A DNA stretch of 64,000 nt from Alphaproteobacteria bacterium (GTDB taxonomy: Bacteria; Pseudomonadota; Alphaproteobacteria; Rhodobacterales; Rhodobacteraceae), in the NCBI GenBank assembly GCA_003331935.1, contig QOQE01000009.1, forward strand, positions 3,503 through 67,502, read 5' to 3'. This document shows positions 5,792-63,698 of this stretch, piece after piece; within the stretch, counting starts at the first letter, position 1; every line of letters begins with the position of its first letter. The position numbers and the translations under genes are program-made. The notes under the pieces were generated by a model. The model ran no database searches and was not told where the DNA came from. It saw only the letters and a program-made list of their open reading frames with translations.

Positions 5792-5900
5792 TAAATCCCC
5801 CATTGTTCCGAAATACTAACAAACATACGCAATAAAAGGCAAGAGATTGAATAACTAAATCGTAGTATATTTATCGGTTATAATATTCTAAGTTTTTGGC

Positions 5901-7448: not shown

Positions 7449-7450
7449 GA

Positions 7451-8508: not shown

Positions 8509-8509
8509 T

Positions 8510-9481
8510 CTACTCTGCAGCCTGTAAAGCCGCTTGTTTCTTTAAGGCATGTTCGCGTGCAGCATCTCTAACCCAAGTACCTTCATTCCACGCTCTTTGT
8601 TTAGCTGCTAATCTTTCGTTATTCATAGGGCCATCGCCTTTAATAACTCTCCAGAACTCATCCCAGTCGATTTTTCCATAAGCATAACCACCTGTACCTT
8701 TATTTCTTTTCTTATCCCATTTTAAATCCCTATCAGGAATGGTAAGGCCAATCTTTTTAGCCTGGGGCACTATGGCATCTACAAATTTTTGCCTCAGTTC
8801 GTCATTTGTATATCTTTTTATTTTCCATCTAACAGAGTCTTCCGTATTAGTGCTATCTGCGTCGCTTGGCCCAAACATCATAACACTAGGCCACCACCAT
8901 CTGTTAAGTGCTCTTTGGGCCATGTCTTTTTGTGCTTCTGTACCTTTTGCTAGAGTAAGCATGATCTCATAACCTTGGCGCTGATGAAAGCTTTCCTCTT
9001 TACAAATTCTGATCATAGCTCGCGCGTAAGGTCCATATGAACAGCGGCAAAGTGGAATTTGATTCATTATTGCTGCACCATCTACGAGCCATCCAATAGC
9101 TCCAATATCTGCCCATGTAGGTGTAGGATAATTGAAAATAGACGAATATTTCGCCTTACCAGATAGTAATTCTTGGGTCATGTCCATTCTAGACTTTCCA
9201 AGTGTCTCGGCAGCGCAGTAAAGATACAAACCATGGCCTGCTTCGTCCTGTACCTTTGCTAAAAGAGATAACTTTCTTTTAAGTGTAGGTGCCCTCGTAA
9301 TCCAATTGCCCTCAGGAAGCATTCCCACAACTTCCGAGTGCGCGTGTTGTCCTATTTGCCTAATGAGCGTTTTCCTGTAGGCCTCTGGCATAAAATCCTT
9401 GGGCTCTATCTTTTCATCCTGGTCAATTTTTGCCTCAAATTCTTTTATTAAAGAGCCCGTTTTTTGTAATTCTGTAGTCAT
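8510..9481 (-). CDS. paaA: Phenylacetyl-CoA 1,2-epoxidase catalytic diiron subunit PaaA
   Basis: 323 aa. [49 protein letters not shown] and [11 protein letters not shown] (diiron ligand motifs) are highly similar to E. coli PaaA as recalled. Confidence 0.95.
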
Positions 9482-9642
9482 TGCTCCAATTACCGTCTTC
9501 CTTAAAAATATCAGTATACTTTATATGATAAAAAAAATTAATCTTCAATATCAACCGCTATTATATCAAAAAAAATTGCTTTGAAAATTTATCTAATGTT
9601 AATCTAACCCAAGTCCAATTTTATATACTAGCAAGAGAGAGC

Positions 9643-10068
9643 ATGACGCCTTTAGAACGCGCAAAAAAATCCGCAGAAATAATGTGGAAAAAAGACAGAG
9701 CCTCTCAGGGGATTGGTATAAAAATTGAGAGTGTAGCCCCTGGAAAGGCTGATTTAAGTTTAACAGTTCAGAGCAAACACTTAAATGGCCACGATATTTG
9801 CCATGGAGGTTTTATTTTTACTCTCGCAGATAGTGCGTTTGCATTTGCTTGCAATAGCTATAACCAAGCGGCAGTTGCTCAAAATAACATGATTACTTTT
9901 ATAGCGCCCGCGCAGAGAGGTGAGAAGCTAATTGCAAAAGCGAGAGAGGTAAGCCGGACAGGTCGTTCGGGGATCTATGATGTTTCAGTTTTTAACGAAA
10001 AAAAACAGAAGATAGCTGAATTTAGAGGACTTTCAAGAACAATAGGCGGACAAAACTTCAAGGAATAA
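9643..10068 (+). CDS. paaI: Hotdog-fold (hydroxy)phenylacetyl-CoA thioesterase PaaI
   Basis: 141 aa with LNGHDICHGGFIFTLADSAFAFACNS, the hotdog thioesterase core. It lies directly upstream of paaK and divergent from paaA. Confidence 0.85.
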   Translation: MTPLERAKKSAEIMWKKDRASQGIGIKIESVAPGKADLSLTVQSKHLNGHDICHGGFIFTLADSAFAFACNSYNQAAVAQNNMITFIAPAQRGEKLIAKAREVSRTGRSGIYDVSVFNEKKQKIAEFRGLSRTIGGQNFKE

Positions 10069-10072
10069 AATC

Positions 10073-11377
10073 ATGAAAGACTTATCTCCGAAAAAACATG
10101 AATTGGAACGAATTGAGATCGCATCAATTGACGAAATTAAAGCGCTACAACTTGATAGATTGAGGTGGTCTATTAATCATGCCTATAACAACGTAGAATT
10201 TTACAAAAATAAATATGATGAAGTTGGAGTTCATCCTGGAGATTTAAAACATTTGGAGGACATAAAGCTATTTCCATTTACAACAAAAGAGGATCTTAGG
10301 AACAATTATCCCTTCAAAATGTTTGCTTGTAAACTAGAGAATATTGCAAGGATACACGCTTCATCCGGTACTACAGGTAAACCCACAGTCGTTGCTTACA
10401 CCAAAAATGATTTGGCAATGTGGGAGCATTTAATCGAACGATGCCTCCGTGCTTCAGGCATGAAGAAAGGAGATTTGCTTCATAATGCATATGGCTATGG
10501 ATTGTTTACTGGTGGTCTGGGCTTACACGGGGGGGCAGAAAAAATGGGATTAACGGTTGTCCCTGTATCCGGTGGGATGACAGCTCGACAAGTTCAGCTA
10601 ATCAATGATTTTAGGCCTAAAGGTATAACGGTTACGCCTTCGTATATTTTGTCTGTTTTAGATGAGTTCAGAGCACAAGGGCTTGACCCTCGGGAGTGCT
10701 CCTTGGAAGTGGGCATTTTCGGAGCAGAGCCTTGGACAAATTCAATGCGCCAGGAAATCGAATCCCAATTTGACATGCATGCTGTGGACATCTACGGCTT
10801 GTCCGAGGTGCTAGGGCCAGGGGTGGCTAATGAGTGTGTAGAGTCAAAAGATGGACTGCATGTTTGGGAAGATTATTTTTACCCGGAGATAATCAATGTA
10901 GAGTCTGGTAATGTGTTGGATGATGGGGAGAAGGGCGAGCTGGTTTTCTCATCTTTGTGTAAAGAGGCTTTTCCGATAATTCGGTACAGAACCAAGGATT
11001 TGACTAAATTGATGAGTGGAACTGCCCGTTCAATGCGTAGGATGGAAAAGATAACAGGTCGTAGCGACGATATGATTATAATTAGGGGTGTGAATATTTT
11101 TCCAACTCAAATTGAGGAACAGCTTCTAAAAATCAGTGATCTATCTCCCCATTTTCAGATTAGATTAATCAAAGAGGGTAGGTTAGATAAAATGATAGTA
11201 AGTGCAGAGCACTATGAATCCGAAGACTTATCAAAAGAAAATACGGAGAGATTGGCTGTTGACCTAAAAAATCGTATCAAAGATAATATTGGTCTAAATA
11301 TCGAAGTAAATGTTTCTAAGAAGGGTTCTGTCCCAAGATCGGAGGGAAAGGCTGTTAGGGTAATTGATGAAAGATAA
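10073..11377 (+). CDS. paaK: Phenylacetate-CoA ligase PaaK
   Basis: 434 aa with the adenylation P-loop SSGTTGKPTVV, and an N-terminal LQLDRLRWSINHAYNNVEFYKNKYDEVGVHP typical of PaaK-type ligases. Confidence 0.9.
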   Translation: MKDLSPKKHELERIEIASIDEIKALQLDRLRWSINHAYNNVEFYKNKYDEVGVHPGDLKHLEDIKLFPFTTKEDLRNNYPFKMFACKLENIARIHASSGTTGKPTVVAYTKNDLAMWEHLIERCLRASGMKKGDLLHNAYGYGLFTGGLGLHGGAEKMGLTVVPVSGGMTARQVQLINDFRPKGITVTPSYILSVLDEFRAQGLDPRECSLEVGIFGAEPWTNSMRQEIESQFDMHAVDIYGLSEVLGPGVANECVESKDGLHVWEDYFYPEIINVESGNVLDDGEKGELVFSSLCKEAFPIIRYRTKDLTKLMSGTARSMRRMEKITGRSDDMIIIRGVNIFPTQIEEQLLKISDLSPHFQIRLIKEGRLDKMIVSAEHYESEDLSKENTERLAVDLKNRIKDNIGLNIEVNVSKKGSVPRSEGKAVRVIDER

Positions 11378-49259: not shown

Positions 49260-51164
49260 TTATTTTTCCGTTAGCCCATACGGTTTGAGGGCAGATATTA
49301 ATTCGTTAAGATATGTTTTATCACGCGCAGTGATAAATTCTTTGTGAATAATCTCACCTGTTTTACCCTTTCCGTCGATGGCTTTATGTAGCTCGAACAT
49401 TTTTTTTGCCTTCTTTTTACTTCCCTTTAACTCATAAAGATAAGCAAGCTGAAGATATAATGTTTGGTCAACTCCACTCCAATTATGCTTTTCATTTAAT
49501 TTTGTAAGAGCGAAATTTTCTGCCTTATCGTATTGAGTATTTTCAATTAATGCGTGATTGTACATATAGAATATCCATGCCTGATGATGCGGATTAGATA
49601 GCATTATTTTCTCATAGTTCTCTATTGCTTCTTCTAACCTTCCACAGGAGTGAATAACTAGATTTGCCATGCCTAAATCTGAATGATCTTTGGATGCTTG
49701 TAATAGAGTAGGTATCCTGCCACAGGCCTCATCATACTTTTTTAAAAATAATTCGATTAAGCCTGCTAGAGCTTTAGGCGTTGTCCATTCAGTAAACTCA
49801 TCAATAGCATTCAATGCAATGTTGTAGGCTTTCTCCATATCCCTTTTTGGGTTGTCAGAAATTCTCATTGTTACCTTTCTCCAGTTAACCCAAGCCATCA
49901 TAAAGTTTAATCGTCTGTTGCTGGGATCCAACTCAATAGCTTTTTTCCAAAGCTTTTCAGCTTTTTGACTTCCATCCACAGTTTTAAGGCCAAAAGCAGA
50001 CCAAGCGTTGAGATAATTTCTATACGCTTCTGGGTTAGTAAAATAGTTTACATCGCTTAGCTGTGACCCCCGTGTTTTAACACTGAGCTGTTCCAGAATG
50101 GCTAAACTTATCTTTTCTTGAACAGGGAAAAGCTGTTTTAATTCTCCAAAATCAAAAAGCTTTGACCACACAACTTCACTACTCTTAAGATCAGTCATTT
50201 GCAAAGTGACACGAAAGGCTCCCTCGGTACCTTGTACATCGCCTCTCAACAGATATTGAACCCCATAGTTCCGTGAAATCTCTTTATCAGTGTAATTTCT
50301 TTCTTGAACATATTTCCCAGTACTGGATGAGGATACCATTATTGAGTCATTAATTGATAAGGTGGATATTATATTACTTGTTACACCAAATCCTATGAAG
50401 TCATTATCAGAATTCCCTGTTTGATTTTCAAAAGGCATTACCAAAATTGAGGGTTTATCAATTGGCATCATTTGGGTTTTGCTGACTGGTATTGTGTCTG
50501 ATTGGAAATAAAAAATAATTCCAATAATTACAATTGTGGATACTGAGGCCAAAATTGCTAAATTGCGTAGCATCGGCTTTGAAGATGCTCTTAGAGTTCG
50601 TTTTTGCGATTTACTTAAAAGAATATCATAGGCATGAAACTCATTTTCTTTAACTTTTTGCAAACCAAGATCATTGAAGGATAAATCTACTTTTCCATTA
50701 ACCAAATCAAAAATTGACTTAGAAATTGTTACTCCTGCGGGTTGAGCCAAGGCCTCTAATCTCGCTGCAATATTAACACCGTCTCCCAGAAGATTTCGCT
50801 TCTCTTTTATTACGTCGCCCATATGTATTCCAATACGAAATTGTAGCTTAATTGGGAGATCATTCTGAGAGTAAAATTCATTAAGTCGTTCTTGAAATTC
50901 GGATGCGCATTCAACAGATGATACGGCACTAGGGAATTCGGCAAAGAAAGAGTCGCCACCAGAATTAAAAAGTCGGCCTTCATATTTTTTGAACAGATCT
51001 TTAAGAATATTCTCACACGCTCGAAGAGTTTTTACTGACTCATCCTCATTTTTTTCCATATGCTTGCTATAGCCAACGACGTCAGTTGCAAAAATGACTG
51101 CCAGTTTTCTATTTATGGTGCTAATCGTTATTCTCTCATAGAAGTTTAGATGTAGAATTATCAA
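49260..51164 (-). CDS. Membrane-anchored class III adenylate/guanylate cyclase with extracytoplasmic TPR-containing sensor region
   Basis: 634 aa with cyclase motifs AVIFATDVVGYS, GDSFFAEF, IGIHMGDV and GDGVNIAARLE, one TM (LAILASVSTIVIIGIIFYF), then about 400 aa with TPR-like helical repeats. There is no in-frame ATG upstream of the catalytic core (TTG at 51164). Confidence 0.8.
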   Translation of the reverse strand: MIILHLNFYERITISTINRKLAVIFATDVVGYSKHMEKNEDESVKTLRACENILKDLFKKYEGRLFNSGGDSFFAEFPSAVSSVECASEFQERLNEFYSQNDLPIKLQFRIGIHMGDVIKEKRNLLGDGVNIAARLEALAQPAGVTISKSIFDLVNGKVDLSFNDLGLQKVKENEFHAYDILLSKSQKRTLRASSKPMLRNLAILASVSTIVIIGIIFYFQSDTIPVSKTQMMPIDKPSILVMPFENQTGNSDNDFIGFGVTSNIISTLSINDSIMVSSSSTGKYVQERNYTDKEISRNYGVQYLLRGDVQGTEGAFRVTLQMTDLKSSEVVWSKLFDFGELKQLFPVQEKISLAILEQLSVKTRGSQLSDVNYFTNPEAYRNYLNAWSAFGLKTVDGSQKAEKLWKKAIELDPSNRRLNFMMAWVNWRKVTMRISDNPKRDMEKAYNIALNAIDEFTEWTTPKALAGLIELFLKKYDEACGRIPTLLQASKDHSDLGMANLVIHSCGRLEEAIENYEKIMLSNPHHQAWIFYMYNHALIENTQYDKAENFALTKLNEKHNWSGVDQTLYLQLAYLYELKGSKKKAKKMFELHKAIDGKGKTGEIIHKEFITARDKTYLNELISALKPYGLTEK

Positions 51165-53375: not shown

Positions 53376-54413
53376 ATGATTATTAAAGCTCCTATAAAAC
53401 TAATTGGTAATAATGGATCTCCATATACACGAAAAATGGTGTCCTTACTCAGGTATAAGCATATCCCATACAAAATTATCTGGGGGGAACCAGAGGAATA
53501 CTTAGACCGACACAATATTGAGAAACCAAAGCCAATTTTACACCCAACATTCTTATTCGAAAATTCTGAAAACAAAATTGTAGCTGTTACCGACTCAACA
53601 CCCATCATTAGAAAGCTAGAGAGCAAATTCAAAAGCCGCAGCACTATTCCCTCAAACCCAGTTTTGAGATTTCTTAACTACTTGCTGGAAGATTATGGTG
53701 ATGAGTGGGGAACGAAATTTATGTTTCATTACCGATGGTATGATGACAAGGACATTGACAATGCAGGGACGTTGTTACCTCTTTATGCAAACTCCACACT
53801 AACAAATGAGGAACTTAGCCAGAAAAAAGAGAAAATAGCTGACCGCCAGCTTGGAAGGGTTTGGGTTGTAGGATCAAATAAAAAAACAGCGCCCCTTATT
53901 GATCAAAGTTTCAAAAGGGTCATAAGCATTTTGGAGGACCATTTTATTACTTATCCATTTTTACTTGGATCCCGCCCGGCCTCGGCAGATTTTGCTTTCT
54001 TTGGACAATTGAGTCAGCTTGTAGGCTTTGACCCAACGCCCCGTTCAATCATACAAAATATTTCAATGCGCACTGTGGCATGGGTAGGAAAAACTGAAGA
54101 CTTATCTGGCTTGGAACCAGATAGCGAAGATTGGATCAGTGACTCAGTTCTTCCATGGACCCTTAAAAATATTTTTGGAGAGATTGGAAAGACATATGTA
54201 CCAACAATGTTGGAGAATGAGGATGCTTTCAATAAAGGCAAAGAAAAATGGAACGCAGTAATTCTAGGCAGTGAGTGGGAGCAAAGAACATTTCCTTATC
54301 AAGTAAAATGTTTGCAGTGGATTCGCAAAGAATTCAAAGGTCTTGCGTCAAATGAACAACAAAAAGTCCTTAATCTATTAGAAGAGTCAGGCTGTCAAAA
54401 GCTAATAGTCTAA
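53376..54413 (+). CDS. Extended glutathione S-transferase-like protein
   Basis: 345 aa. The thioredoxin-like N-domain (LIGNNGSPYTRKMVSLLRYKHIPYKII...VAVTDSTPIIRKLE) is followed by a long helical C-domain (LLGSRPASADFAFFGQL). Confidence 0.6.
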   Translation: MIIKAPIKLIGNNGSPYTRKMVSLLRYKHIPYKIIWGEPEEYLDRHNIEKPKPILHPTFLFENSENKIVAVTDSTPIIRKLESKFKSRSTIPSNPVLRFLNYLLEDYGDEWGTKFMFHYRWYDDKDIDNAGTLLPLYANSTLTNEELSQKKEKIADRQLGRVWVVGSNKKTAPLIDQSFKRVISILEDHFITYPFLLGSRPASADFAFFGQLSQLVGFDPTPRSIIQNISMRTVAWVGKTEDLSGLEPDSEDWISDSVLPWTLKNIFGEIGKTYVPTMLENEDAFNKGKEKWNAVILGSEWEQRTFPYQVKCLQWIRKEFKGLASNEQQKVLNLLEESGCQKLIV

Positions 54414-54419
54414 AAAGAG

Positions 54420-55640
54420 TCATTCTGAGATAGCGCCAGAATCTTTTAAGTCTTTAATTTGATTGTCATCTAAACCAAGCATTTCTCTCAATATTACGAT
54501 ATTATCCTCTCCCAGTTTTGGGGCTCTTCTAATATCGGTTTCAGCCATATTTGAGAGCTTTATTGGATTCCCAAAGACTTTAACCATCTCATTTAGCACA
54601 GGCATATCCAGAATCATTTTTCGATCTATTAATTGAGGATCGGAAACAACTTCTCCAATTCCCTTGATCGGGCTTAAGGGAACTTTGTCTGCGAGCATAG
54701 TTTCAAGCTCAGCTTTTGTGTATCTAGAAAACCATCCATTTATAAGAGGCTTTATACGTCGATCATAAACTTCCTTATTGAAACGCTTATGCATTGTATC
54801 AATTTCAGGGTCTGAAGCTAAATCATCACAATTAAAAACTTTAAGCGTTTCTCGCCACTGTTTATCATTATATCCACCAAAAAATACAAATCCATCCTTG
54901 CAGGAAAATTGCTCATATGGACGTACAAAAGCGTGATCATTTCCCGTAGGAGTGGCTTCCACACCATCTATAGAGTATCGGAGAAGCGCACTTTCAGTAA
55001 GGCATAGAGTAGAGTCAACCTGAGCTACATCAACCAATTGGCCTAATCCTGTTTTTTCTGCTTCCCTAAGGGCCACAATAGTTCCTATTGTGCCAAAAAA
55101 GCAAGCTGCTAAATCTCCAATGATGGTACCCACCCTTACCGGCGGCCTGTCAGGATAACCATTCATTGACCAAAGACCACTTTCAGCCTGTCCAGTATTA
55201 TCAAAGCTTGGTCTTGATGATTTGGGTCCAGTTTGTCCAAAACCACTTATTGAGGTATATACGAGTGCAGGGTTTTCTTTTTTAAGATCGTCGTATCCTA
55301 GCCCTAGACCGTTCATGGCACCAGGACGAAAGTTCTCGATCAAAATATCGGCCTTTTTAACTAATTTTTTAAGAGTTTTTTTACCCTCTTGATTTTTTAG
55401 GTCTAGGGTCATTCCTAATTTATTTCTATTATACTGAGCAAAGAAAGCGCTTTCCTTATCCGTTTTTGTAAAAGGCGGAAAGTTTCTTGTATAATCAGGA
55501 TCATTGGGGTTTTCGATTTTTATTACTGTCGCGCCTAGATCTGCGAGGATCATTGCGCTGTAGGGACCAGCAACTACTCGTGTTACATCTAGGACAACCA
55601 CACCTTCCAGAGGTAGGCCCTTGGAGTCAGCTAAGGTCAT
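54420..55640 (-). CDS. Class III (CaiB/BaiF family) CoA-transferase, last gene of the ABC operon
   Basis: 406 aa with LEGVVVLDVTRVVAGPYSAMILADLGATVIKIE and ADILIENFRPG signatures. 21 nt downstream of the ATPase gene on the same strand. Confidence 0.85.
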   Translation of the reverse strand: MTLADSKGLPLEGVVVLDVTRVVAGPYSAMILADLGATVIKIENPNDPDYTRNFPPFTKTDKESAFFAQYNRNKLGMTLDLKNQEGKKTLKKLVKKADILIENFRPGAMNGLGLGYDDLKKENPALVYTSISGFGQTGPKSSRPSFDNTGQAESGLWSMNGYPDRPPVRVGTIIGDLAACFFGTIGTIVALREAEKTGLGQLVDVAQVDSTLCLTESALLRYSIDGVEATPTGNDHAFVRPYEQFSCKDGFVFFGGYNDKQWRETLKVFNCDDLASDPEIDTMHKRFNKEVYDRRIKPLINGWFSRYTKAELETMLADKVPLSPIKGIGEVVSDPQLIDRKMILDMPVLNEMVKVFGNPIKLSNMAETDIRRAPKLGEDNIVILREMLGLDDNQIKDLKDSGAISE

Positions 55641-55661
55641 AGCTTGCCTTTCATAGGTTTT

Positions 55662-57164
55662 TTAATGTACCGCTGCGTAAATAATTTTCTCTTCAGATGC
55701 ATCTTCTATTTCAAACTCCTCAACGATTTGACCAAGTCTAGCCACTAAAATTCTATCTGAAATTGACATTACCTCAGGCAAATATGATGAAACGACGATT
55801 ACAGTAATTCCCTCATCAGCTAAAGACTTAATGAAATCATGTATTTCTTTGATAGCACCCACATCAACTCCACGAGTTGGTTCATCAAAAATTACAACTT
55901 TAGGTTTTTGAACCAGCCCCTTAGCGATCACTACTTTTTGTTGGTTGCCCCCTGACAATTCAACCACTGGGGAGTTTATATCTTTTGTCTTAATATTTAG
56001 TCGCTCTATCCAATGGTCTGCAAGAGTTTTTGCTTCAGACAAACTTACAGTATTCCAAAGCTTATCTTCAGCAACCATTTTGCCTAATTGTATGTTCTGA
56101 CTGATGCCAAAGTTTTCAAAAAAACCTTCACTTTTTCTATCTTCAGTTACATAGATTATTCCATCATTGACTGCAGTTCTGGGAACAAGGTATCTAACAT
56201 ACTTACCATTTAGAAGTATGTTACCCCCATGAAAAATATTTCTTTTATAAACTCCGGATACTACCTTCATCATCTCTGTTCGTCCCGAACCAACTAAGCC
56301 AAAAACACCAGTAATTTGACCTGAGTAGGCTGAAAAAGTTGAGTTTTTTACCATAGAGCCCATAGACAAATTCTCGACTTCAAGTGTTTTTCTACCTCTT
56401 TTACGTGGCTTTTTACGTGCAGTTTTTTTCGTAGCATAAGCCGAGTCAGTTAAATCTCGTCCTATCATCGCTTTTACAATTCGTTCTCTATTGAAATTTT
56501 TTGCCTTGTCTGTTTCTATCAACTCGCCATCCCGCAAAACAGTTATTCTGTCAGAATGTTCCAATGCCTCTTCCAAAGCATGAGAAATGAATACTATTGA
56601 TACGCCTTCTTTCTTCAGTCTTTGCATTAACCCAAAGAAATGGTGTTTCTCTTCTGGTGTTAACGTAGCTGTAGGCTCATCAAAAATTATAACTTTAGCG
56701 TTATGGTGTACAGCTCTTGCAATCTCAACCATCTGTTTTTGTGCAGCACCTAGTTGCGATACAAGAAGGTTTGGGTCAACATTAAAGTTAAGTGATTGCA
56801 AAAATCTACTCGCTTTGATATTCAGTTTTGCCAAGCTATTAAAGAAATTTTCTGCACCTAAGTAGATATTTTGAGAAACAGTCATATTGGGGACCAGACT
56901 GTTCTCCTGAAATACCATTACTACTCCATTATTTAAGGCTTCTGATGGGTTTAAAAATGTTGTTTCTTTTCCTTCAAAAATAAATGAACCAGAGGTTAAC
57001 TGGTAAACACCTGCAGCTACCTTTGTCATTGTCGATTTGCCGGCACCGTTTTCGCCAAGAAGAGAATGTATTTCTCCTCTAAGAAGACTAAAATTGACGT
57101 TTGTTATTGCTTTAACACCGTGAAATTCTTTTGTTCCGTCAATAATTTGAAAAACTTCAGTCAC
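55662..57164 (-). CDS. CUT2-type sugar ABC transporter ATP-binding protein (tandem NBD)
   Basis: 500 aa with Walker A GENGAGKST, Walker B VIIFDEPT, a second-NBD signature LSGGNQQKVVIAKG, and VVIFDEPTRGVD. Confidence 0.9.
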   Translation of the reverse strand: MTEVFQIIDGTKEFHGVKAITNVNFSLLRGEIHSLLGENGAGKSTMTKVAAGVYQLTSGSFIFEGKETTFLNPSEALNNGVVMVFQENSLVPNMTVSQNIYLGAENFFNSLAKLNIKASRFLQSLNFNVDPNLLVSQLGAAQKQMVEIARAVHHNAKVIIFDEPTATLTPEEKHHFFGLMQRLKKEGVSIVFISHALEEALEHSDRITVLRDGELIETDKAKNFNRERIVKAMIGRDLTDSAYATKKTARKKPRKRGRKTLEVENLSMGSMVKNSTFSAYSGQITGVFGLVGSGRTEMMKVVSGVYKRNIFHGGNILLNGKYVRYLVPRTAVNDGIIYVTEDRKSEGFFENFGISQNIQLGKMVAEDKLWNTVSLSEAKTLADHWIERLNIKTKDINSPVVELSGGNQQKVVIAKGLVQKPKVVIFDEPTRGVDVGAIKEIHDFIKSLADEGITVIVVSSYLPEVMSISDRILVARLGQIVEEFEIEDASEEKIIYAAVH

Positions 57165-58250
57165 TTATTTCCAGCCTCCTAATTTCCCATCTCCTCTAGA
57201 CGTAACCAATATATTTTGGCTATTATCAACAATTACGCTAGTAGTGCCATGAAAATTCCCACTTGTGCGACTGTGATAACTTGCTAGTGCTTTTAAATCT
57301 TTATCAAATCTAACAACTAACCCATACGAGAAAGCGGGCGCCCAAGGTTTTAGGTATCCCATCGTCTTTATTCCCGATTGTTGGAGGGGCTCTCTGATAT
57401 GTTTTCCGCTTCTGTAGGTAGGTGCAACCCACAAACTTGGGTCAATTTCTGCCATCATTCTAGTTTTATATTCTTCTTCAGTTAAAATAAACTCAACGAG
57501 TTGATTTCTAGGAGCAAAAAAGCAAACCAAAAGCTCTTCATTTGAGCTATTGAAGAAGCTTTTTCCTGGATAAGCTGGAAGCTTGCTAATCTCTTTATCA
57601 AGTCTTGATGCTGAACTCTGGTCATCACTAAGTTTATGAAAACTTATACGGTGCATCCAAGACTCCGAAATACAAAACGTTGTCTTTCCGGTAAACGTAA
57701 TGCCGGTAGGCCAAGATAATTCTTTTATAAGCACTCGCTTATTTGAACCATTGAGTTCATTTATACAAACGGTTCCACTGCATCCATTAGAGAGAAGGTC
57801 ATGTTGCCATTGAGCAGCCAAGAATTTTTGAGAACCCGTCGTATAAATTAAAGCTTCATTATTAAAACACATAGAGGTCACACACTTCTCTTGGAACCTG
57901 AACGCTTCCTTTAGTGTCTTCAGAATTAAAATGATTATATTGTCATCATCTAAGGCAACGGCCAATTTTGATCCCGACGCATTTACAGCCATTGCGGTGA
58001 TCTCGTTAGAGAACGTTATAACTTTTTTTGCTTTTTTTGCGCTGGAGATAGAAAAGACTGATGATTTTGCTGAAAAAAAAGTGGTCCCTTTATTCAATGT
58101 CAGGTTGTCCACATCTTCCTGTTTGTGAATTATCTTTATACTATCCAAGAACTCGTTCGGTTTCAAAGCCCCGTCCATTACTGGAACAAATATACTGTGT
58201 TTGCCTCTTCCAAAGACATAATCGATACGATCTTTCAAAAAGCTGAGCAT
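57165..58250 (-). CDS. Free-standing divergent strictosidine-synthase-like (SSL) beta-propeller paralogue, probably non-catalytic
   Basis: 361-aa ORF abutting the ATPase gene (0-nt gap), 3 nt after the fusion gene. By eye it aligns with the C-terminal domain of 58254-60377: LSWPTGITF...ISESWMHRISF vs LKFANGVCV...FAETFGMKVSRYWF; LPAYPGKSFFNSSNEELLVCF vs IPGYPDNINRASDGNYWLAL; the C-terminal ILVTSRGDGKLG vs LYLGGIQNNRIG. Confidence 0.55.
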   Translation of the reverse strand: MLSFLKDRIDYVFGRGKHSIFVPVMDGALKPNEFLDSIKIIHKQEDVDNLTLNKGTTFFSAKSSVFSISSAKKAKKVITFSNEITAMAVNASGSKLAVALDDDNIIILILKTLKEAFRFQEKCVTSMCFNNEALIYTTGSQKFLAAQWQHDLLSNGCSGTVCINELNGSNKRVLIKELSWPTGITFTGKTTFCISESWMHRISFHKLSDDQSSASRLDKEISKLPAYPGKSFFNSSNEELLVCFFAPRNQLVEFILTEEEYKTRMMAEIDPSLWVAPTYRSGKHIREPLQQSGIKTMGYLKPWAPAFSYGLVVRFDKDLKALASYHSRTSGNFHGTTSVIVDNSQNILVTSRGDGKLGGWK

Positions 58251-58253
58251 TTT

Positions 58254-60377
58254 TTACTTAGTACTCCAATAATCTGGGAAGCCACTCCAGTTTTTATTAG
58301 CATCTGGAATTTGATATTTACCGATTCTGTTGTTTTGTATCCCACCCAAATAGAGGTGGCCCTTATGCTCCCTCATAGAGGTTACCATTGGGTGGTTTTT
58401 AGCTTTAAGGTCCCATAGGGTTTCTAATACTTCTCCATTTTCAGTTATTTTTAAAACGCAACCAGTATTAATATTAGGAAATAACCAATTCGACGTATTG
58501 ATACGTCTAGACATTCTTTTTCTAAAGTCAGGAAGGGTTAGCGCTAGATCTAAAGCCGGGCCTCTCATCCCAACTAGTGCAAGCCAATAATTTCCGTCTG
58601 AAGCACGGTTTATATTGTCTGGATAGCCTGGAATATTGTCCATAATGACTTCTGTTTTGCCCTTTTTAGGTCCTTCGAACCAATATCTACTTACTTTCAT
58701 TCCAAATGTCTCAGCAAATAGGATCGACTGACAATCTTTAGTAACACACACTCCGTTTGCAAACTTTAGATCTCTAATTATAGTTCTTGTTGTATCGGTT
58801 TTAGGGTCATAACATATTATTCGACCATTACCCCTACTTTCCACGCAGTCCATTGGCCAATCCTTCAAGCGATATCTTATAGTTGCCTCAGAGAAAAATA
58901 TCCGCCCGTCAGGCGCAATGTCCAAATCATCAGCTAGACTTAATCTCCTATCATCAATCACCGAAGTAAGGCTCCTGTTAGTTTCATCTGTAATCTTAGA
59001 TACTTTCCTGTCTTGTGATATCGAGATAACTCCCATGTCAGGAATACAAGCCACAAGGTTATAATTTTTGTCCCATGCTAATCCAAGAGGATGTCCACCT
59101 ACGTGTGCAAAAACTTCCATTTTTTCATGATTTTTACCATAGAATCTTACGATGTCTCCGTGCCTGCTTCCAGCATATAAGTTATCGTCATCATCAAGTA
59201 TAACGTCTTCAGGTCCTTCGACTTTCCCAAGCCCAATTACACTAACATCTTTAAGTTTGTCGTTTACTGAATAAGGCGAGCCACTCTCTGCTTCTATTGA
59301 TGCGGGAGCTGGTAGCTTAACGTACGTGGGAGACACGTATACTTTGTTTAATAACCGAAATCTATTTTTTACCCATCGGACATCAATCAATATTGTAAGC
59401 AGTAATATGATCCCAAATATGAGTTGTATGGCACCACCCTGAATTCCAAATTGTATTAATCCATTAAGCAGCAACAATACTATCAATGATCCAAAAATTG
59501 CTTTTGGAACGGAACCTCTCCCCCCACCGAGACTAACTCCGCCTAGCACAGCTGCCGTAAGTATTGTAAGCTCAAGTCCTTTACCAGTGTCTGCACCAGT
59601 ACTCGCCATTCTGGCTGCATACATAAATCCAGCGACAGAACATAAAATGCCACAGGTAACGTAAGAAAAAAAGATCGTTTGCTTAACTTTTATACCAGCA
59701 TTATAAGCTGACCGTCTAGATCCTCCGACTGCTGTAAGGTGCCATCCAGGTTTCATCCTACTTATCAACAGATGGCCTGCCACAAATATAATGATTGTGG
59801 CAACTAAAACAAAAGGTATTCCATAACTATCTCCATCTCCTATAAATTCCCATAATTCAGAATCTGGAAAAACTGAAGAAATGTCTAAAGCATATTCGAG
59901 TAGTAAAAGATCTACTATTGATCTGTAAATTATTAATGTTACCAAGGTCGTCAAGAAGGCGCGCATTCCGATTATGCCAATGAAAAACCCATTAAATGCA
60001 CCACAGATAGCACCTACACTCATTGTTATAATTAGTGTAAGAATAGGATCTAAACTCAAAACATGTACACAATATAGAGCTACAAGATTTGCTATAGCAA
60101 ATATTGATCCAACTGAAAGGTCCAAACCCCCTCCCATCATTACCACAGTCATTCCAAGAACAATTAAGCCAAGTTCTGCATACTGTCTTCCATATTCTGT
60201 TAAATTATAGGCGGTATAAAAACCGGGTAATACCAGCAAAAGACCGAAGCCAACAAAAAATAAGGTTAGAAACGGTATTGCGTTGTCTGCCCAACGCTTT
60301 GCAAGTATTTCACCAAATACATGATCGGGAAATATATTATACCTCGCAGTTAAAAACCTTTCTCTTAGAGTGCTCAT
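58254..60377 (-). CDS. Fusion protein: RbsC-type ABC permease (N-terminal ~335 aa) plus strictosidine-synthase-like/APMAP-type six-bladed propeller domain (C-terminal ~350 aa)
   Basis: An uninterrupted 707-codon ORF. Permease motifs are GGGLDLSVGSIFA and ILTAAVLGGVSLGGGRGS. SSL motifs are VEGPEDVIL, HPLGLAW, DLDIAPDGRIFFSE, FANGVCV, LFAETFGMKVSRYWFEG, IPGYPDNINRASDGNYWLAL and EHKGHLYLGG. Confidence 0.8.
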   Translation of the reverse strand: MSTLRERFLTARYNIFPDHVFGEILAKRWADNAIPFLTLFFVGFGLLLVLPGFYTAYNLTEYGRQYAELGLIVLGMTVVMMGGGLDLSVGSIFAIANLVALYCVHVLSLDPILTLIITMSVGAICGAFNGFFIGIIGMRAFLTTLVTLIIYRSIVDLLLLEYALDISSVFPDSELWEFIGDGDSYGIPFVLVATIIIFVAGHLLISRMKPGWHLTAVGGSRRSAYNAGIKVKQTIFFSYVTCGILCSVAGFMYAARMASTGADTGKGLELTILTAAVLGGVSLGGGRGSVPKAIFGSLIVLLLLNGLIQFGIQGGAIQLIFGIILLLTILIDVRWVKNRFRLLNKVYVSPTYVKLPAPASIEAESGSPYSVNDKLKDVSVIGLGKVEGPEDVILDDDDNLYAGSRHGDIVRFYGKNHEKMEVFAHVGGHPLGLAWDKNYNLVACIPDMGVISISQDRKVSKITDETNRSLTSVIDDRRLSLADDLDIAPDGRIFFSEATIRYRLKDWPMDCVESRGNGRIICYDPKTDTTRTIIRDLKFANGVCVTKDCQSILFAETFGMKVSRYWFEGPKKGKTEVIMDNIPGYPDNINRASDGNYWLALVGMRGPALDLALTLPDFRKRMSRRINTSNWLFPNINTGCVLKITENGEVLETLWDLKAKNHPMVTSMREHKGHLYLGGIQNNRIGKYQIPDANKNWSGFPDYWSTK

Positions 60378-60401
60378 AGATTATCCATTCAGAAGTTTGG
60401 T

Positions 60402-60431
60402 TTCTCGAGCCATAACATTATGGCTCGAGAA
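60402..60431 (-). other. Perfect 13-bp intercistronic stem-loop immediately downstream of the binding-protein gene
   Basis: TTCTCGAGCCATA-acat-TATGGCTCGAGAA, read directly from the sequence. It starts 13 nt after the SBP stop codon and 24 nt before the fusion-permease ATG. No U-tract follows on the minus strand. Confidence 0.6.
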
Positions 60432-60444
60432 GTTAATAAAATTA

Positions 60445-61470
60445 TCAGTTAGATGATAAGCTTTCAACAGTCCAACATGCTCCAGATCCCATATACGAAG
60501 CCATGTTTTCCTTGGTGAGTATCTGAGGCTGAGTGAAGAATGAAACTTTTCCAGCCTTTCCTGGCTTATTGCCGGATTGCAGAAGGCTCTTCAAAGCGTT
60601 TGAAAGGTCCCTAGCCTGCCCTGGAACATCGTAACTTACAAAAACATCGAAAATGTCATTTTCCAAGTTATCGCACCCATTTTTTCCGCCGCCGCCTGAA
60701 GTAGCAAGAAATACTTTTTCATGCATTCCGGCTTCTTTAACTGCTGCTCCTGTGCCTATATCCATTCCATCCCAAAACCCGACAATACCACATAAATCTG
60801 GATTCTGTTGAAGAGTTGTTTCAGTGATCGCACGAGCTTTGGTGGAATCCCAGTCAGCTGCCTGGTTTGACACAACTTTAATATTTGGATTTTTTTCAAG
60901 GATATTAGAAACACCTCTGAGTTGGTAAGCGCTTGCTGCTGCCGTCAAAACTCCTTGCACAATAGCTATCTTTTGAGACGTGCCAGGCCCGCATTGATCA
61001 ACGACTTTTTGGGTTACTATCTCACCTATTTCGATATAATCAGCTCCCACGAAAGCATCTGTTGGGAAAGCTGATTTCATATTAACTTGTACAATATGTA
61101 TCCCAGCTTTTTCAGCTTTCTTCAGAAGCTTAGCATAAGTTTGCACGTCAGGATTGTGGATCACCATTGCATCAGGCTTTTCTGAGATTAGTGATGAAAT
61201 AGCTTTAGAGCCTGCGTCAGCACTCCAGTTTGGGTCTCGTAAAATCATCTCAACTCCCAAAGGCTCAAGAGCCTTTTTCATGCCTGCATACCAACCTTCT
61301 GTTAAGTCAAATCCCATAGCTAGTGGAACAAAGGCAACTCTTTTCCCTTGTAAAGCTGAGTAGTACTTATCTCTGGCAGGGTCCGCTATGCCCATCTTTT
61401 CTGCTTGTGCACTGAGAGGTAGCATAAGAGCTAACGCCACAATGATTAGTTTTAAAGTTTTAAATTTCAT
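60445..61470 (-). CDS. Periplasmic binding protein type I (RbsB-like sugar ABC substrate-binding protein)
   Basis: 341 aa with the signal peptide MKFKTLKLIIVALALMLPLSAQA, then the RVAFVPLAMG...DAMVIHNPD...HIVQVN pattern typical of CUT2 SBPs. Confidence 0.85.
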   Translation of the reverse strand: MKFKTLKLIIVALALMLPLSAQAEKMGIADPARDKYYSALQGKRVAFVPLAMGFDLTEGWYAGMKKALEPLGVEMILRDPNWSADAGSKAISSLISEKPDAMVIHNPDVQTYAKLLKKAEKAGIHIVQVNMKSAFPTDAFVGADYIEIGEIVTQKVVDQCGPGTSQKIAIVQGVLTAAASAYQLRGVSNILEKNPNIKVVSNQAADWDSTKARAITETTLQQNPDLCGIVGFWDGMDIGTGAAVKEAGMHEKVFLATSGGGGKNGCDNLENDIFDVFVSYDVPGQARDLSNALKSLLQSGNKPGKAGKVSFFTQPQILTKENMASYMGSGACWTVESLSSN

Positions 61471-61502
61471 ATTTTCCTCCTTTTTTAAAACTTGTTTGAT
61501 TA

Positions 61503-62489
61503 TTATATATCACCTTGTTGGGTAGTTTGTTCATCTCTTGGGTTTAATATTGTATCTGTCATAATAGCAATCAACAAAATTATCCCCTTTATTAGGTTTT
61601 GAACAATGAAAGATATATCCATAATTACCATTCCGTTAAGAAGAGTACCAATCAGAAGAGTTCCTAGAATGACATTGTGCATACCTCCCTTGCCACCGGA
61701 AAGGCCAATGCCACCAACTACTACCACCAAAAGCACGTCGTAGATCATAGAGCCTGACACCATTCGTGTATTTATAGAACTTATTGCTCCAGCGGTCAGT
61801 AATCCTGCAAAGTAAGCAACTAAGCCGGCAATAACAAAAATGATTACAAGTATCGGTCTCACAGGAACACCTGCAGTTCTTGCTGCTAGTCCACTGTCAC
61901 CGATAGAGTAAACAAACTTACCAAAAGTCGTTTTTTTCAAAACGAGATGCATTATAAAGGCCAAGGACAAAAAACATATTATTGGCATCGGCACTCCGAG
62001 CAGTTGCCCTCTTCCCAAATATTCCAACCAAATAGCATCTTCAGGTAAATAATTTAACTCATCCCCAATAAATAGCGTTCTTCCTAAGCCATAAATAACG
62101 CCTGCCATAGCCAATGTCACAAAGACTGAAGCCATATCCCAATAAGCAACCAAAATACCTGTAATGGCGCATAATATAGCTGTAAATAGAAATCCTAGTA
62201 AAACCGCATACACAAACGGTAGGTCGAATGAAGGCAAGACATCTGGGGAGCTCATTACCGATGCTAAGGCAGTCCCAACAGCAAGGGTCGCAATTAATGA
62301 AAGATCTATACCTTTAGAAATTACAACCACTGCCATGGCAATACTGAGGATCCCCAAAATAGAGACACTTCTCATCAAGGTTAGAAGATTTCCAGTTGAA
62401 AAAAATTTATCTAGAAAAATTGAAAATCCAGCAAAGATAACAACGGTTACGATCAAAATGATCAATTCTTGGTTACGTAACTTAATCAA
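61503..62489 (-). CDS. RbsC-type ABC permease (first gene of the operon)
   Basis: 328-aa polytopic protein with SKGIDLSLIATLAVG and VVVGGIGLSGGKGG motifs of BPD_transp_2 permeases. Confidence 0.85.
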   Translation of the reverse strand: MIKLRNQELIILIVTVVIFAGFSIFLDKFFSTGNLLTLMRSVSILGILSIAMAVVVISKGIDLSLIATLAVGTALASVMSSPDVLPSFDLPFVYAVLLGFLFTAILCAITGILVAYWDMASVFVTLAMAGVIYGLGRTLFIGDELNYLPEDAIWLEYLGRGQLLGVPMPIICFLSLAFIMHLVLKKTTFGKFVYSIGDSGLAARTAGVPVRPILVIIFVIAGLVAYFAGLLTAGAISSINTRMVSGSMIYDVLLVVVVGGIGLSGGKGGMHNVILGTLLIGTLLNGMVIMDISFIVQNLIKGIILLIAIMTDTILNPRDEQTTQQGDI

Positions 62490-62555
62490 AAGCCTATTCC
62501 GATATTAGTTTTCAAATGACTAAGCTTAACACGTAGCAAACCCTTGTAAAGCCTG

Positions 62556-62576
62556 TAAGTTTAAATATTAAACTTA
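62556..62576. promoter_or_regulatory. Perfect 8-5-8 inverted repeat TAAGTTTA-AATAT-TAAACTTA upstream of the ABC operon (candidate operator)
   Basis: Read directly from the sequence. It lies 67-87 nt upstream of the first permease start codon (62489, minus strand). AT-only arms lower its significance, and no regulator gene is nearby. Confidence 0.3.
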
Positions 62577-62662
62577 AAATGGGCTAATTTATGTGATAGC
62601 CGCTGACGCCTTTTTCATCGACAAATTAGGCCTCGTTAAACTATGTTCTCTTATAAATAACC

Positions 62663-63082
62663 TCAAGAATAGAGCTTGTCACTTAACCCATAAATCAGAA
62701 TTGCGTTCAATATTGTGAAACCTGCAGGCGCGATATATGCCTCAGCGCTATACTTTACGCCATCCATTTTAGCAGCGTCTGAGTGGTTCACGGTCACGTA
62801 ACCAAAATATGTAAAAATCAAGCTTTGTAAAAAACCAAATACAAAAATAGGCCAAGTTCCTTGAGGGCCATTTTCACGGAATAATATATAAATTGAAACC
62901 AGTACTAACGCTGCTATCAGGGAGCCCGCTAATCTAAGTGGTAAAATTGCGGAGTGATGAATACCGTATTGGTCACAAAATTTTTCTGATGTAAAAAGAG
63001 CCTGGTAGGCGTAATAAGCTCCACCCAGAAAATTGATAATGAAAAGAACTAAAAATATTGGTCCATTGAATGTATCGATCAT
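62663..63082 (-). CDS. Small 4-TM membrane protein, unknown function
   Basis: Track ORF 62663-63094. ATG at 63082 (MIDTFNGPIF) has GGAG 7 nt upstream. It has four hydrophobic segments. No family recognised. Confidence 0.55.
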   Translation of the reverse strand: MIDTFNGPIFLVLFIINFLGGAYYAYQALFTSEKFCDQYGIHHSAILPLRLAGSLIAALVLVSIYILFRENGPQGTWPIFVFGFLQSLIFTYFGYVTVNHSDAAKMDGVKYSAEAYIAPAGFTILNAILIYGLSDKLYS

Positions 63083-63290
63083 TTTTTTCTCCAAAAGTTA
63101 TTTTTGAGAGTGTACCATGAAAAGTTCACATACGCTACGATTGTAGCAAAAGGTGAAGCCTAAAATGAGTAACGTTATTGGTGCTAGCTTTGAAATAAAA
63201 ATACTTTGACTATTACGAAGCGATTATTAGAAATTAGAATTGAGTTAATCTTTAATAACGCCTTAGCAAAATAAGAGTGGAGCAATAAAA

Positions 63291-63698
63291 TTGTTTGATA
63301 CAAAAATAGCCATAGTACTTCTAGCATCATTAAAGAATTGGCAAAAACTTAATATCACGTCATTTCTGACCACTGGAATTATTGGTCAGACAAGCTCGTT
63401 GATCGGCAAAAAATATATTGATAAATCAAATTATGAATATCTTGCACTTAGTAGACAACCAGTAGTTATTTTGGAAGCCGATTTGGTTGCCTTAAAAAAA
63501 ATTCATGCCAGAATTTTGGAAAGATCCCTGACCTGTTCCCTTTATATTGAGGATATGTTTACAACGGGAAATGATGAGGCTAATAGAAGTACTGTAAAAA
63601 ATTATAACAGTGGGGATCTTCCACTTGTGGGTCTGGCACTAAGAGAAGAAAAAAAAATAGTCGACAAAGTAACGAAGGGTGCGAAGCTTCATTCATAG
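63291..63698 (+). CDS. DUF2000-like protein
   Basis: 135 aa with a TTG start. FDTKIAIVLLASLKNWQKLNITSFLTTGIIGQ resembles my recollection of the DUF2000 N-terminus. Moderate call. Confidence 0.5.
   Translation: MFDTKIAIVLLASLKNWQKLNITSFLTTGIIGQTSSLIGKKYIDKSNYEYLALSRQPVVILEADLVALKKIHARILERSLTCSLYIEDMFTTGNDEANRSTVKNYNSGDLPLVGLALREEKKIVDKVTKGAKLHS

Follow-up and report, generated by a model that had tools for sequence, protein, structure and literature searches.

The 64,000-nucleotide stretch analyzed here (hereafter the window), taken from contig QOQE01000009.1 of an alphaproteobacterial assembly of the Rhodobacteraceae, carries at 54420-62489 a run of six minus-strand genes that encode an ATP-binding cassette (ABC) importer of the CUT2 type together with a class III CoA-transferase. 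One permease of this importer is fused to a C-terminal β-propeller, and the gene for a second, free-standing propeller lies between the permease and ATPase genes. We propose that the system imports a neutral lactone, hydrolyzes it at the transporter and hands the product over for CoA activation, a reading to which we assign a probability of about one half. The proposal builds on gene order, domain composition, sequence conservation, membrane topology, the retention or loss of metal ligands and a recurrent linkage to CoA and hydroxy-acid genes, and it predicts a substrate class, a hydrolytic activity, trapping of the product and a physical association of the free-standing propeller with the transporter. 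In transcription order, the six open reading frames (ORFs) are separated by gaps of 32, 67, 3, 0 and 21 nt; a preliminary description of the locus had given their strand and spacing exactly, and its domain calls were borne out by Pfam, in the case of the free-standing propeller only through profile-profile comparison and structural modelling.

The fused propeller scores above the Pfam cut-offs for SSL_N (52.6 bits, cut-off 18.9), Str_synth (70.5, cut-off 25) and SGL (42.7, cut-off 26.3), in agreement with the earlier assignment of this region to strictosidine-synthase-like (SSL) or SMP-30-type profiles. Structurally, the domain adopts a six-bladed propeller in the AlphaFold2 (AF2) model. Foldseek placed it closest to strictosidine synthases (template modeling (TM) score 0.81), TGW6 (0.78) and the Rpa3624 lactonase (0.77), followed by DFPase, PON1 and SMP30, and its superposition on strictosidine synthase and TGW6 reached target TM-scores of 0.78-0.82. 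In a family profile alignment, DFPase residues E21, N120, N175 and D229 correspond to E390, D483, N541 and D587 of the fusion, while PON1 residues N224, D269 and N270, in an alignment restricted to fusion residues 519-605, correspond to N541, D587 and N588. The five putative ligands E390, D483, N541, D587 and N588 are kept in 86-87 of 87 distinct fusion sequences, among which D391, D484, D486, E497, N590 and D594 are likewise conserved. In the case of TGW6 (8kg3), a single acidic ligand and no bound Ca2+ have been described (PMC10958001); with three acidic ligands, the site of the fused propeller therefore resembles those of metal-dependent hydrolases. The fused propeller is thus predicted to be a catalytic, cytoplasmic, Ca2+-dependent hydrolase of the SSL/PON type.

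The cytoplasmic location follows from the permease part of the fusion (BPD_transp_2, 101.3 bits in Pfam), which has ten helices in the AF2 model. Its loop 206-233 contains six lysine or arginine residues and no aspartate or glutamate, with G218, G219, R221, R222, A224, N226 and G228 invariant, and four helices come after it before the chain exits the membrane via RWVKNRFRLLNK. Because this basic EAA-type loop, which couples to the nucleotide-binding domain (NBD), must be cytoplasmic, the four subsequent helices and RWVKNRFRLLNK put the fused propeller on the same side. A periplasmic site for the propellers was considered and rejected on topology, given the coupling loop, the helix count and the lack of a hydrophobic segment in the free-standing protein.

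Lactone hydrolysis is not the only chemistry that such a fold could perform. The fused propeller may instead be an esterase of acyl-sugars or other esters, acting as TGW6 does on glucose-conjugated indole-3-acetic acid (IAA) and releasing a sugar and an acid, the latter then being CoA-activated, or it may work in the manner of strictosidine synthase, as a lyase or condensing enzyme. Among solved structures, its best matches in sequence and fold are the ester hydrolase TGW6 and the strictosidine synthases, a CUT2 binding protein would suit a glycosyl moiety, and the flanking acyl-CoA genes described below would take the released acid. Strictosidine synthase proper is defined by its catalytic Glu309, the environment of Tyr151 and His307, and a pocket for tryptamine and secologanin; alignments of the fusion to these enzymes span only residues 489-599, short of the catalytic region. 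A DFPase/PON1-type site with three acidic ligands is, moreover, unlike that of TGW6 or of the metal-free strictosidine synthases, no set of sugar kinase, isomerase, dehydrogenase or dehydratase genes occurs among the recurrent flank families, and flanks of the ACAD11 and mvaAB types point specifically to γ- and δ-hydroxy acids. On this balance we regard a different enzymatic role as unlikely, though worth keeping in view.

The free-standing propeller (free propeller) scores 22.6 bits against Str_synth, below the Pfam cut-off of 25. Its relationship to the fused domain emerges from profile-profile comparison with hhalign (99.7% probability, E = 5e-26, 304 columns, 14% identity) and from its AF2 model, which is also six-bladed (mean predicted local distance difference test (pLDDT) score 88, predicted TM-score (pTM) 0.85), so that its description as a divergent paralogue holds. 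Foldseek found Drp35, PON1 and strictosidine synthase nearest, with TM-scores of 0.64-0.71 against strictosidine synthase and TGW6. The protein lacks any hydrophobic segment and is accordingly assigned to the cytoplasm. At the positions equivalent to the five metal ligands it has D/E48, a gap, F/A/Y/T/S182, S/G/A229 and R/K230; since these positions are substituted, gapped or variable, the metal site is gone from the free propeller. Meanwhile, D26, N32, W198, R248, Q290, K301, P302, W303, S308, R328 and H334 are invariant in 83 of 83 sequences. The loss of the metal site alongside residues of its own that are invariant suggests that the free propeller is probably a non-catalytic accessory subunit with a structural or regulatory function. 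Of the two enzyme-fold propellers, only the fused domain keeps a putative catalytic metal site.

No part of the free propeller is better conserved than an insertion of about 28 residues that the fused domain lacks (E287, Q290 and K301-P-W-A-P305), and residues 284-305 are modelled as disordered in the monomer (AF2 pLDDT <50). This conserved insertion is a candidate partner-binding loop. In one relative, P0358 (905 aa), a member of the free-propeller family is joined in frame to the tandem-NBD ATPase through a linker of about 25 residues. P0358 may be a real gene fusion, and hence Rosetta-stone evidence of association, or else the 4-nt overlap usual between the two genes may have been read through or misassembled; as a single case it points the same way as an association of the free propeller with the ATPase.

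The five transporter genes recur as a module. Neighborhoods were compared in seven Pfam-annotated genomic loci and 80 metagenome loci obtained by a scan with alignment, for at least 95 loci overall. A single-protein scan of genome contigs returned close marine single-cell genomes only, and the diversity of the set comes from encoding contigs and the metagenome scan. Wherever the contig reaches far enough, the order permease 1, substrate-binding protein (SBP), fusion, free propeller, ATPase is the same in all 95 related loci, an arrangement far beyond chance given its recurrence in every one of them. Where the sequence suffices, the ATPase is present in 70 of 70 loci, permease 1 (as first gene) in 67 of 67 and the SBP in 77 of 78, the lone SBP exception being an ORF-boundary artefact. 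An initial tally of seemingly missing free-propeller genes (69 of 86) proved to be an artefact of stop-to-stop ORF boundaries in contigs of high GC content, and the gene is present in every flagged locus. The propeller genes are thus never missing from homologous loci, which refutes the idea that they adjoin the transporter by chance. The six-gene unit originally proposed stands for these five genes, which are conserved in order, and not for the CoA-transferase, which lies outside the constant core. In 60 of 81 loci, the fusion gene shares 4 nt with the free-propeller gene at their stop-start junction, and the free-propeller stop and the ATPase start overlap likewise in 56 of 68, a pattern typical of subunits made in a fixed ratio.

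Of the 120 best database clusters of the fusion (56-95% identity), one is a 459-aa fragment, and the remaining 119 span the full length and share its four Pfam domains. Named clusters belong mostly to Alphaproteobacteria (Mesorhizobium, Rhodobacteraceae, Kaistia, Vineibacter, Acidisoma, Roseiarcus and Hypericibacter), and the core loci come from Rhizobiales, Rhodobacterales, Rhodospirillales, Sneathiella, soil and marine metagenomes, and a metagenome-assembled genome (MAG) of Vulcanimicrobiota. The fusion is therefore widespread, as a domain-architecture search was meant to establish, and it is annotated only generically, as 'ribose transport system permease', 'ABC transporter permease' or 'SMP-30/gluconolactonase/LRE family protein'. 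The free-propeller family comprises at least 342 representative clusters (50% identity) at E <= 1e-30, most of them unnamed or labelled 'hypothetical'. Across orders, the fusion and the ATPase are 55-67% identical to the window proteins, and the free propeller only 34-38%. The window comes from an uncultured marine alphaproteobacterium, to which marine single-cell genomes including AG-426-E23 and AG-897-D05 are 94-95% identical; a 90%-identical free-propeller homologue is labelled Paracoccaceae, and the marine metagenome contig L016 encodes a fusion 100% identical over its full length. Outside the Proteobacteria, a full-length fusion 56% identical to that of the window (P0120) is assigned to Candidatus Cybelea (Vulcanimicrobiota), which suggests horizontal transfer of the module. 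In the literature searched, an incomplete collection, no paper was found on a permease-propeller fusion or on an ABC importer of lactones, and the earlier statement that no characterized importer carries such a fusion stands within that collection.

The transporter subunits themselves have the features of CUT2 systems: an SBP of the Peripla_BP_4 family with an export signal, RbsC-type permeases with a cytoplasmic coupling loop, and a single tandem-NBD polypeptide. In Pfam, permease 1 matches BPD_transp_2 (PF02653) with 84.5 bits and has 10 hydrophobic segments, the SBP matches Peripla_BP_4 with 146.5 bits and bears a signal-peptide-like hydrophobic segment at residues 3-21, and the ATPase contains two ABC_tran domains in 500 aa. 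The nearest solved relatives of the SBP are the allose, ribose and galactofuranose binding proteins, at E ~1e-15. The NCBIfam models closest to the transporter parts are those of AraFGH, RbsABC, Xyl and Als, all far under their equivalog cut-offs: the ATPase scores 443-463 bits against AraG, XylG and RbsA (AraG 463, cut-off 689), and AraH (156, cut-off 378) and AlsB (67, cut-off 335) behave alike. The AraH and RbsC models match permease 1, again well short of their cut-offs. LsrC, LsrD and LsrB models match weakly. No transporter subunit reaches an equivalog cut-off, and by that measure none is orthologous to a component of a characterized system. By its architecture, the five-subunit system is therefore a CUT2 (TC 3.A.1.2) ABC importer that is not an orthologue of any characterized member.

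These scores invite a plainer explanation, namely an ordinary sugar or polyol importer of the CUT2 family in which both propellers are non-catalytic and serve structural or regulatory purposes, for example metabolite-sensing trans-inhibition, while the CoA genes are unrelated neighbors. All transporter parts score best on sugar-importer models, although they stay under every NCBIfam equivalog cut-off for sugar transporters. ABC importers with regulatory domains are well documented, for instance in MalK and MetN; the free propeller clearly lacks a metal site, and about half of the loci have no CoA-activating gene nearby. The fused propeller, however, keeps all five metal-ligand positions together with D391, D484, D486, E497 and N590 in 87 sequences at only 53-66% overall identity, which is hard to explain without catalysis or metal binding. 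Sugar pathway genes are not among the recurrent flank families, and a single CoA-transferase orthogroup adjoins the transporter in two independent arrangements, with a ligase substituting in the same slot. An ordinary sugar importer is accordingly quite unlikely.

Evidence on the substrate comes from the genes that flank relatives of the operon, which fall into three recurrent types, each tracking a transporter sub-clade. Type A comprises a CoA-transferase, an enoyl-CoA hydratase, a 3-hydroxy-3-methylglutaryl (HMG)-CoA lyase (393 bits, NCBIfam cut-off 246) and a degradative NAD-dependent HMG-CoA reductase (442 bits, cut-off 260); by these model scores, the lyase and reductase are the mvaAB pair of mevalonate catabolism. 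Mevalonate and 4-hydroxy acids are ring-opened δ- and γ-lactones, and the type A and type B contexts therefore indicate the catabolism of lactones or hydroxy acids. Type B combines an acyl-CoA ligase, a short-chain dehydrogenase/reductase (SDR), and an APH-family kinase and acyl-CoA dehydrogenase (ACAD) that match the two halves of ACAD11 (E = 3e-78 and 4e-124). Both ACAD10/11 and the bacterial LvaA/LvaC act on 4-hydroxyacyl-CoA by phosphorylation, followed by elimination of the phosphate (PMC12440821, PMC11342911). Type C includes a metallo-β-lactamase-fold (MBL) protein, a hydroxyacid dehydrogenase of the HIBADH type, an aldehyde dehydrogenase, and CMD- and PrpD-family proteins. The MBL protein (L003 15690-16496, L015 14741-15616, and L036) is weakly similar to AttM, AidB and AiiA, at about 57 bits against cut-offs of 360-390, and would be a second, unrelated lactonase-like enzyme in the neighborhood of the transporter.

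No sugar kinase or isomerase was found among the labelled flank genes, non-recurrent flank genes not having been individually annotated, and clustering of the unlabelled flanking ORFs returned only an AraC-type regulator (10 loci) and antisense artefacts, with no further recurrent enzyme. In trees of the SBP, the ATPase and the fusion alike, type A forms a single clade, and so does type C. A single substrate for all contexts was rejected, as flank type is not independent of sub-clade; this tracking makes sub-family-specific substrates likely, and no specific substrate is therefore assigned to the window's system.

The same flanks bear on a possible role of the system in the uptake and inactivation of lactones that serve as signals, for example N-acyl-homoserine lactones (AHLs) or lactones of the γ-butyrolactone type, in parallel to the CUT2-family Lsr system, which imports and processes autoinducer 2 (AI-2). 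PON-type and MBL-type lactonases are classic quorum-quenching enzymes, the type C MBL protein and the weak Lsr matches lie in this direction, and beta-oxidation-type flanks could use an acyl chain. With MBL scores far under the cut-off, with AHLs being hydrophobic and unlike known CUT2 ligands, with no amidase or acylase recurring in the flanks, and with mvaAB-type and ACAD11-type contexts that fit nutrient catabolism better, a signalling role seems very improbable.

The sixth gene product is a full-length member of the CoA_transf_3 family (389 bits in Pfam, 366 of 366 profile positions). Its best solved relative is human SUGCT, the succinate-hydroxymethylglutarate CoA-transferase (9br7, E = 8e-69), with YfdE and Frc also among the top matches, and it scores under all NCBIfam equivalog cut-offs (mesaconate 283 against 700, glutarate 266 against 750, oxalate 251 against 522). 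D176 of its GD motif sits at the position expected for the catalytic aspartate of the family and presumably has that role. The enzyme is predicted to activate the hydroxy-acid product, probably with succinyl-CoA as donor.

Orthologues of this CoA-transferase, 53-66% identical, border the core in a further 11 loci. They occur in two positions: upstream, together with an enoyl-CoA hydratase (L001, L014, L065, L072 and L074), or right after the ATPase, as in the window (L039, L042, L046, L047, L049 and L057). Other CoA_transf_3 genes in the same loci are at most 34% identical to it. In marine relatives whose fusion is ~70% identical, an AMP-binding acyl-CoA ligase fills the same downstream slot. 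Within 5 kb of the core, in 58 non-redundant loci with usable flanks, an AMP-binding ligase occurs in 18, a CoA_transf_3 gene in 9 and at least one of the two in 26; of the 24 loci whose flanks both extend for at least 3 kb, 13 have a ligase or CoA-transferase within that distance, a figure to be taken as a minimum. The CoA-transferase is thus one of two interchangeable CoA-activating enzymes, the other being the AMP-binding ligase. Its proposed linkage to the transporter is upheld in part, by the orthologues beside the core in 11 loci, and weakened in part, by the well-flanked loci in which neither enzyme is found. That the CoA-transferase is merely a chance neighbor of a five-gene transporter in this genome is scarcely credible. 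In favor of chance, the conserved module has five genes, many loci lack the enzyme, and a second, unrelated CoA_transf_3 gene shows the family to be common in the genome. Against it, the window's gene lies 21 nt away on the same strand and keeps this adjacency in 5 of 5 close relatives sequenced far enough to show it (L005-L008 and L010), and 11 distant loci have an orthologue of 53-66% identity next to the core, whereas other CoA_transf_3 paralogues do not exceed 34%.

That second CoA_transf_3 gene (575-1711) lies side by side with an acyl-CoA dehydrogenase gene (1713-2861), both on the minus strand, ~52 kb from the operon. With their counterparts next to the transporter in L002 and L013, the products share 42% (CoA-transferase) and 57% (ACAD) identity. 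A search for pathway genes through the remainder of the window and past its edge yielded just this distant pair, and a link of the pair to the operon is speculative.

Taken together, these elements can be arranged in the following scheme. The SBP would capture a small lactone that is neutral and sugar-like (an ester being the less likely option), and ATP hydrolysis by the tandem ATPase would drive this substrate through the heterodimeric permease pair. At the cytoplasmic exit, the fused Ca2+-site hydrolase would open the ring to give a charged hydroxy-acid that could no longer diffuse back, so that the substrate would be metabolically trapped. The free propeller would act as a stoichiometric, non-catalytic partner that docks via its K-P-W-A-P loop, perhaps on the ATPase or on permease 1, which has no propeller of its own. 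The SUGCT-like CoA-transferase encoded downstream would then form a CoA thioester destined for breakdown of a beta-oxidation-like or HMG-CoA-lyase-like kind. A bolder version, which we hold as tentative and rather doubtful, is an ABC 'holoenzyme' in which the permease-fused Ca2+ lactonase and an ATPase- or permease-bound pseudoenzyme are obligatory in the transport cycle; translocation would then be coupled to ring-opening, as a group translocation that traps membrane-permeant lactones (mevalonolactone, γ- and δ-lactones), and soil and marine Alphaproteobacteria would possess in this system a major, hitherto unnoticed route for lactone carbon.

The sequence of import, hydrolysis and CoA activation put forward in the preliminary description came through every computational test proposed for it, its substrate and activity being predictions. 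Several observations weigh against it. The usual ligands of CUT2 binding proteins are sugars or polyols, and the closest solved relatives of this SBP are sugar binders; moreover, not all members of the SSL family are hydrolases, strictosidine synthase being an example. For the N-terminal ligands, the assignment depends on the DFPase alignment and motif context, the PON1 alignment having covered part of the domain, and the DFPase and PON1 reference sequences used for the mapping were entered by hand. In the moderately confident AF2 model of the full-length fusion (pLDDT 78, pTM 0.58), the arrangement of the domains is not reliable. Roughly every second well-flanked locus lacks a CoA-activating gene within 3 kb. 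In the window and the sequence beyond its edge, only the CoA-transferase stands beside the core, with no lyase, ACAD11-like or HMG-CoA genes nearby, so the extrapolation from the flanks of other sub-clades to the window's own clade is indirect.

The features of the operon are listed in Table 1. A scan of 53800-63400 found promoter-like and terminator-like matches at no more than chance level relative to shuffled sequence (22 against 26.9 expected and 9 against 6.9, respectively), and the operon boundary therefore rests on gene spacing only.

Table 1. Coordinates of the operon's genes, their parts and the upstream region in the window
Feature	Coordinates	Strand	Description
Permease subunit 1	61503..62489	-	328 aa; RbsC/AraH-type BPD_transp_2; ~10 transmembrane segments; no extra domain
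Periplasmic substrate-binding protein (SBP)	60445..61470	-	341 aa; Peripla_BP_4; signal peptide MKFKTLKLIIVALALMLPLSAQA
Permease subunit 2 part of the fusion, residues 1-346	59340..60377	-	BPD_transp_2; 10 helices; EAA-type coupling loop 206-233
Fused propeller, fusion residues 347-707	58254..59339	-	Basic linker RWVKNRFRLLNK; SSL_N segment; six-bladed SSL/PON-type propeller
Free-standing propeller paralogue	57165..58250	-	361 aa; metal-ligand positions lost; cytoplasmic
Free-propeller insertion, codons 284-305	57336..57401	-	Lacking in the fused domain; candidate interaction loop
Tandem-NBD ATPase, CUT2 type	55662..57164	-	500 aa; two ABC_tran domains
Class III CoA-transferase, SUGCT-like	54420..55640	-	406 aa; CoA_transf_3
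Upstream intergenic region, presumed operon promoter region	62490..62662	-	173 nt; no element identified

At the downstream end, a glutathione S-transferase (GST)-like gene (53376-54413, plus strand) converges with the CoA-transferase gene, and the 6 nt between the two stop codons leave no space for an intergenic terminator. Upstream, a gene at 62663-63094 on the same strand as the operon, 173 nt from permease 1, encodes a 143-aa hydrophobic protein with no Pfam or NCBIfam match, followed by a DUF2000 protein on the plus strand (63291-63698). Elsewhere in the window, 5901-11377 holds a phenylacetate-catabolism-like set with PaaA/PaaC-family proteins (7451-8218 and 8510-9481), a PaaE-like ferredoxin reductase (5901-6965) and a PaaK-like ligase (10073-11377), adjoined by a fusion of DAO and GCV_T domains (3350-5803) that resembles dimethylglycine or sarcosine dehydrogenases. 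The product of the minus-strand gene 49260-51164 (634 aa) has an adenylate/guanylate cyclase domain at its N-terminus, then a hydrophobic segment, and a long C-terminal part that Pfam does not match. Another protein with a cyclase domain, of 599 aa, is encoded just past the window's high-coordinate 3' edge in the single-amplified genome (SAG) AG-426-E23 (L008 3466-5265, minus strand); it combines four CDGSH iron-sulfur fingers, a 2Fe-2S ferredoxin, an adenylate/guanylate cyclase and a Rieske domain, an unusual and apparently redox-sensing cyclase architecture.

SBP-dependent ABC importers consist of a binding protein, permeases and ATPases, and the add-ons known for them are regulatory domains on the ATPase and fused binding proteins. 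If the proposed reading is true, a cytoplasmic hydrolase fused to a permease, together with a dedicated pseudoenzyme, would represent a new design principle in which transport is coupled to immediate chemical trapping. We know of no dedicated importers for small lactones, and the system would, on the same premise, offer a first molecular handle on the bacterial scavenging of mevalonolactone and of the γ- and δ-lactones that originate from plants, algae and biomass solvents. Type A relatives located inside an mvaAB-type operon would be candidates for the missing uptake system for mevalonate or mevalonolactone. Moreover, new annotations could be given to thousands of genes that at present bear names such as 'ribose transport system permease', 'SMP-30/gluconolactonase/LRE family protein' or 'hypothetical protein'.

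Among known transporters, RbsABC, AraFGH, XylFGH, AlsABC, YtfQRT-YjfF and LsrACDB share with the window's system a signal-bearing Peripla_BP_4 SBP, BPD_transp_2 permeases and a tandem-NBD ATPase of ~500 aa, and the permease heterodimer has counterparts in YtfT/YjfF and LsrC/LsrD. Unlike these CUT2 systems, the present one carries a cytoplasmic propeller of ~360 aa on one permease and an extra propeller gene between the permease and ATPase genes, and its flanks belong to acyl-CoA and hydroxy-acid catabolism instead of sugar catabolism.

The fold of the propellers is that of PON1, squid DFPase, Staphylococcus aureus Drp35, SMP30/gluconolactonase and Rhodopseudomonas palustris Rpa3624 (TM-scores 0.64-0.77), and the fused domain shares aligned, conserved Ca2+-ligand residues with DFPase and PON1, as mapped on reference sequences entered by hand. 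Identity to hydrolases of the PON1/DFPase type is only 13-15%, and the family assignment is SSL (Str_synth with SSL_N), not SGL or arylesterase. Whereas those hydrolases are soluble, secreted or lipoprotein-associated stand-alone proteins, the fused domain is attached to an ABC permease and accompanied by a degenerate paralogue. The Rpa3624 lactonase is a free-standing SGL enzyme with neither a link to a transporter nor mevalonolactone activity (PMC9843451). The SSL_N and Str_synth architecture is common to the fused domain, plant strictosidine synthase, rice TGW6 and animal APMAP/hemomucin, and its position directly after a membrane helix resembles membrane-anchored eukaryotic SSL proteins. 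In contrast to these, the anchor here is a ten-helix ABC permease, the domain faces the cytoplasm, and nothing points to Pictet-Spengler chemistry.

The downstream chemistry recalls several catabolic pathways. Degradative HMG-CoA reductase and HMG-CoA lyase genes, comparable to mvaAB of Pseudomonas mevalonii (mevalonate), flank relatives of the transporter, as do an ACAD11-type kinase and ACAD with ligase and SDR, comparable to lvaABCDE of Pseudomonas putida and mammalian ACAD10/11 (4-hydroxy acids), while the type C enzyme set follows the logic of the Agrobacterium attKLM pathway (γ-butyrolactone). To our knowledge, none of the described mvaAB, lva or attKLM operons includes an ABC importer with propeller subunits; conversely, these pathway genes are not next to the window's operon, where only the CoA-transferase occurs. 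The latter has the full-length CoA_transf_3 fold in common with SUGCT, YfdE, Frc and the mesaconate and glutarate CoA-transferases, far under whose equivalog cut-offs it scores.

In its proposed logic, the system is comparable to group translocation by the phosphotransferase system (PTS), vectorial acylation by FadL/FadD and trapping by PnuC/NadR, all of which couple translocation to an irreversible or processing reaction, and the PCAT ABC exporters with their fused C39 peptidase demonstrate that an enzyme domain can be joined to an ABC transporter. Unlike all of these, the system described here is an SBP-dependent importer, its predicted trans-side hydrolase sits on the permease and not on the NBD, and it is accompanied by a pseudoenzyme paralogue.

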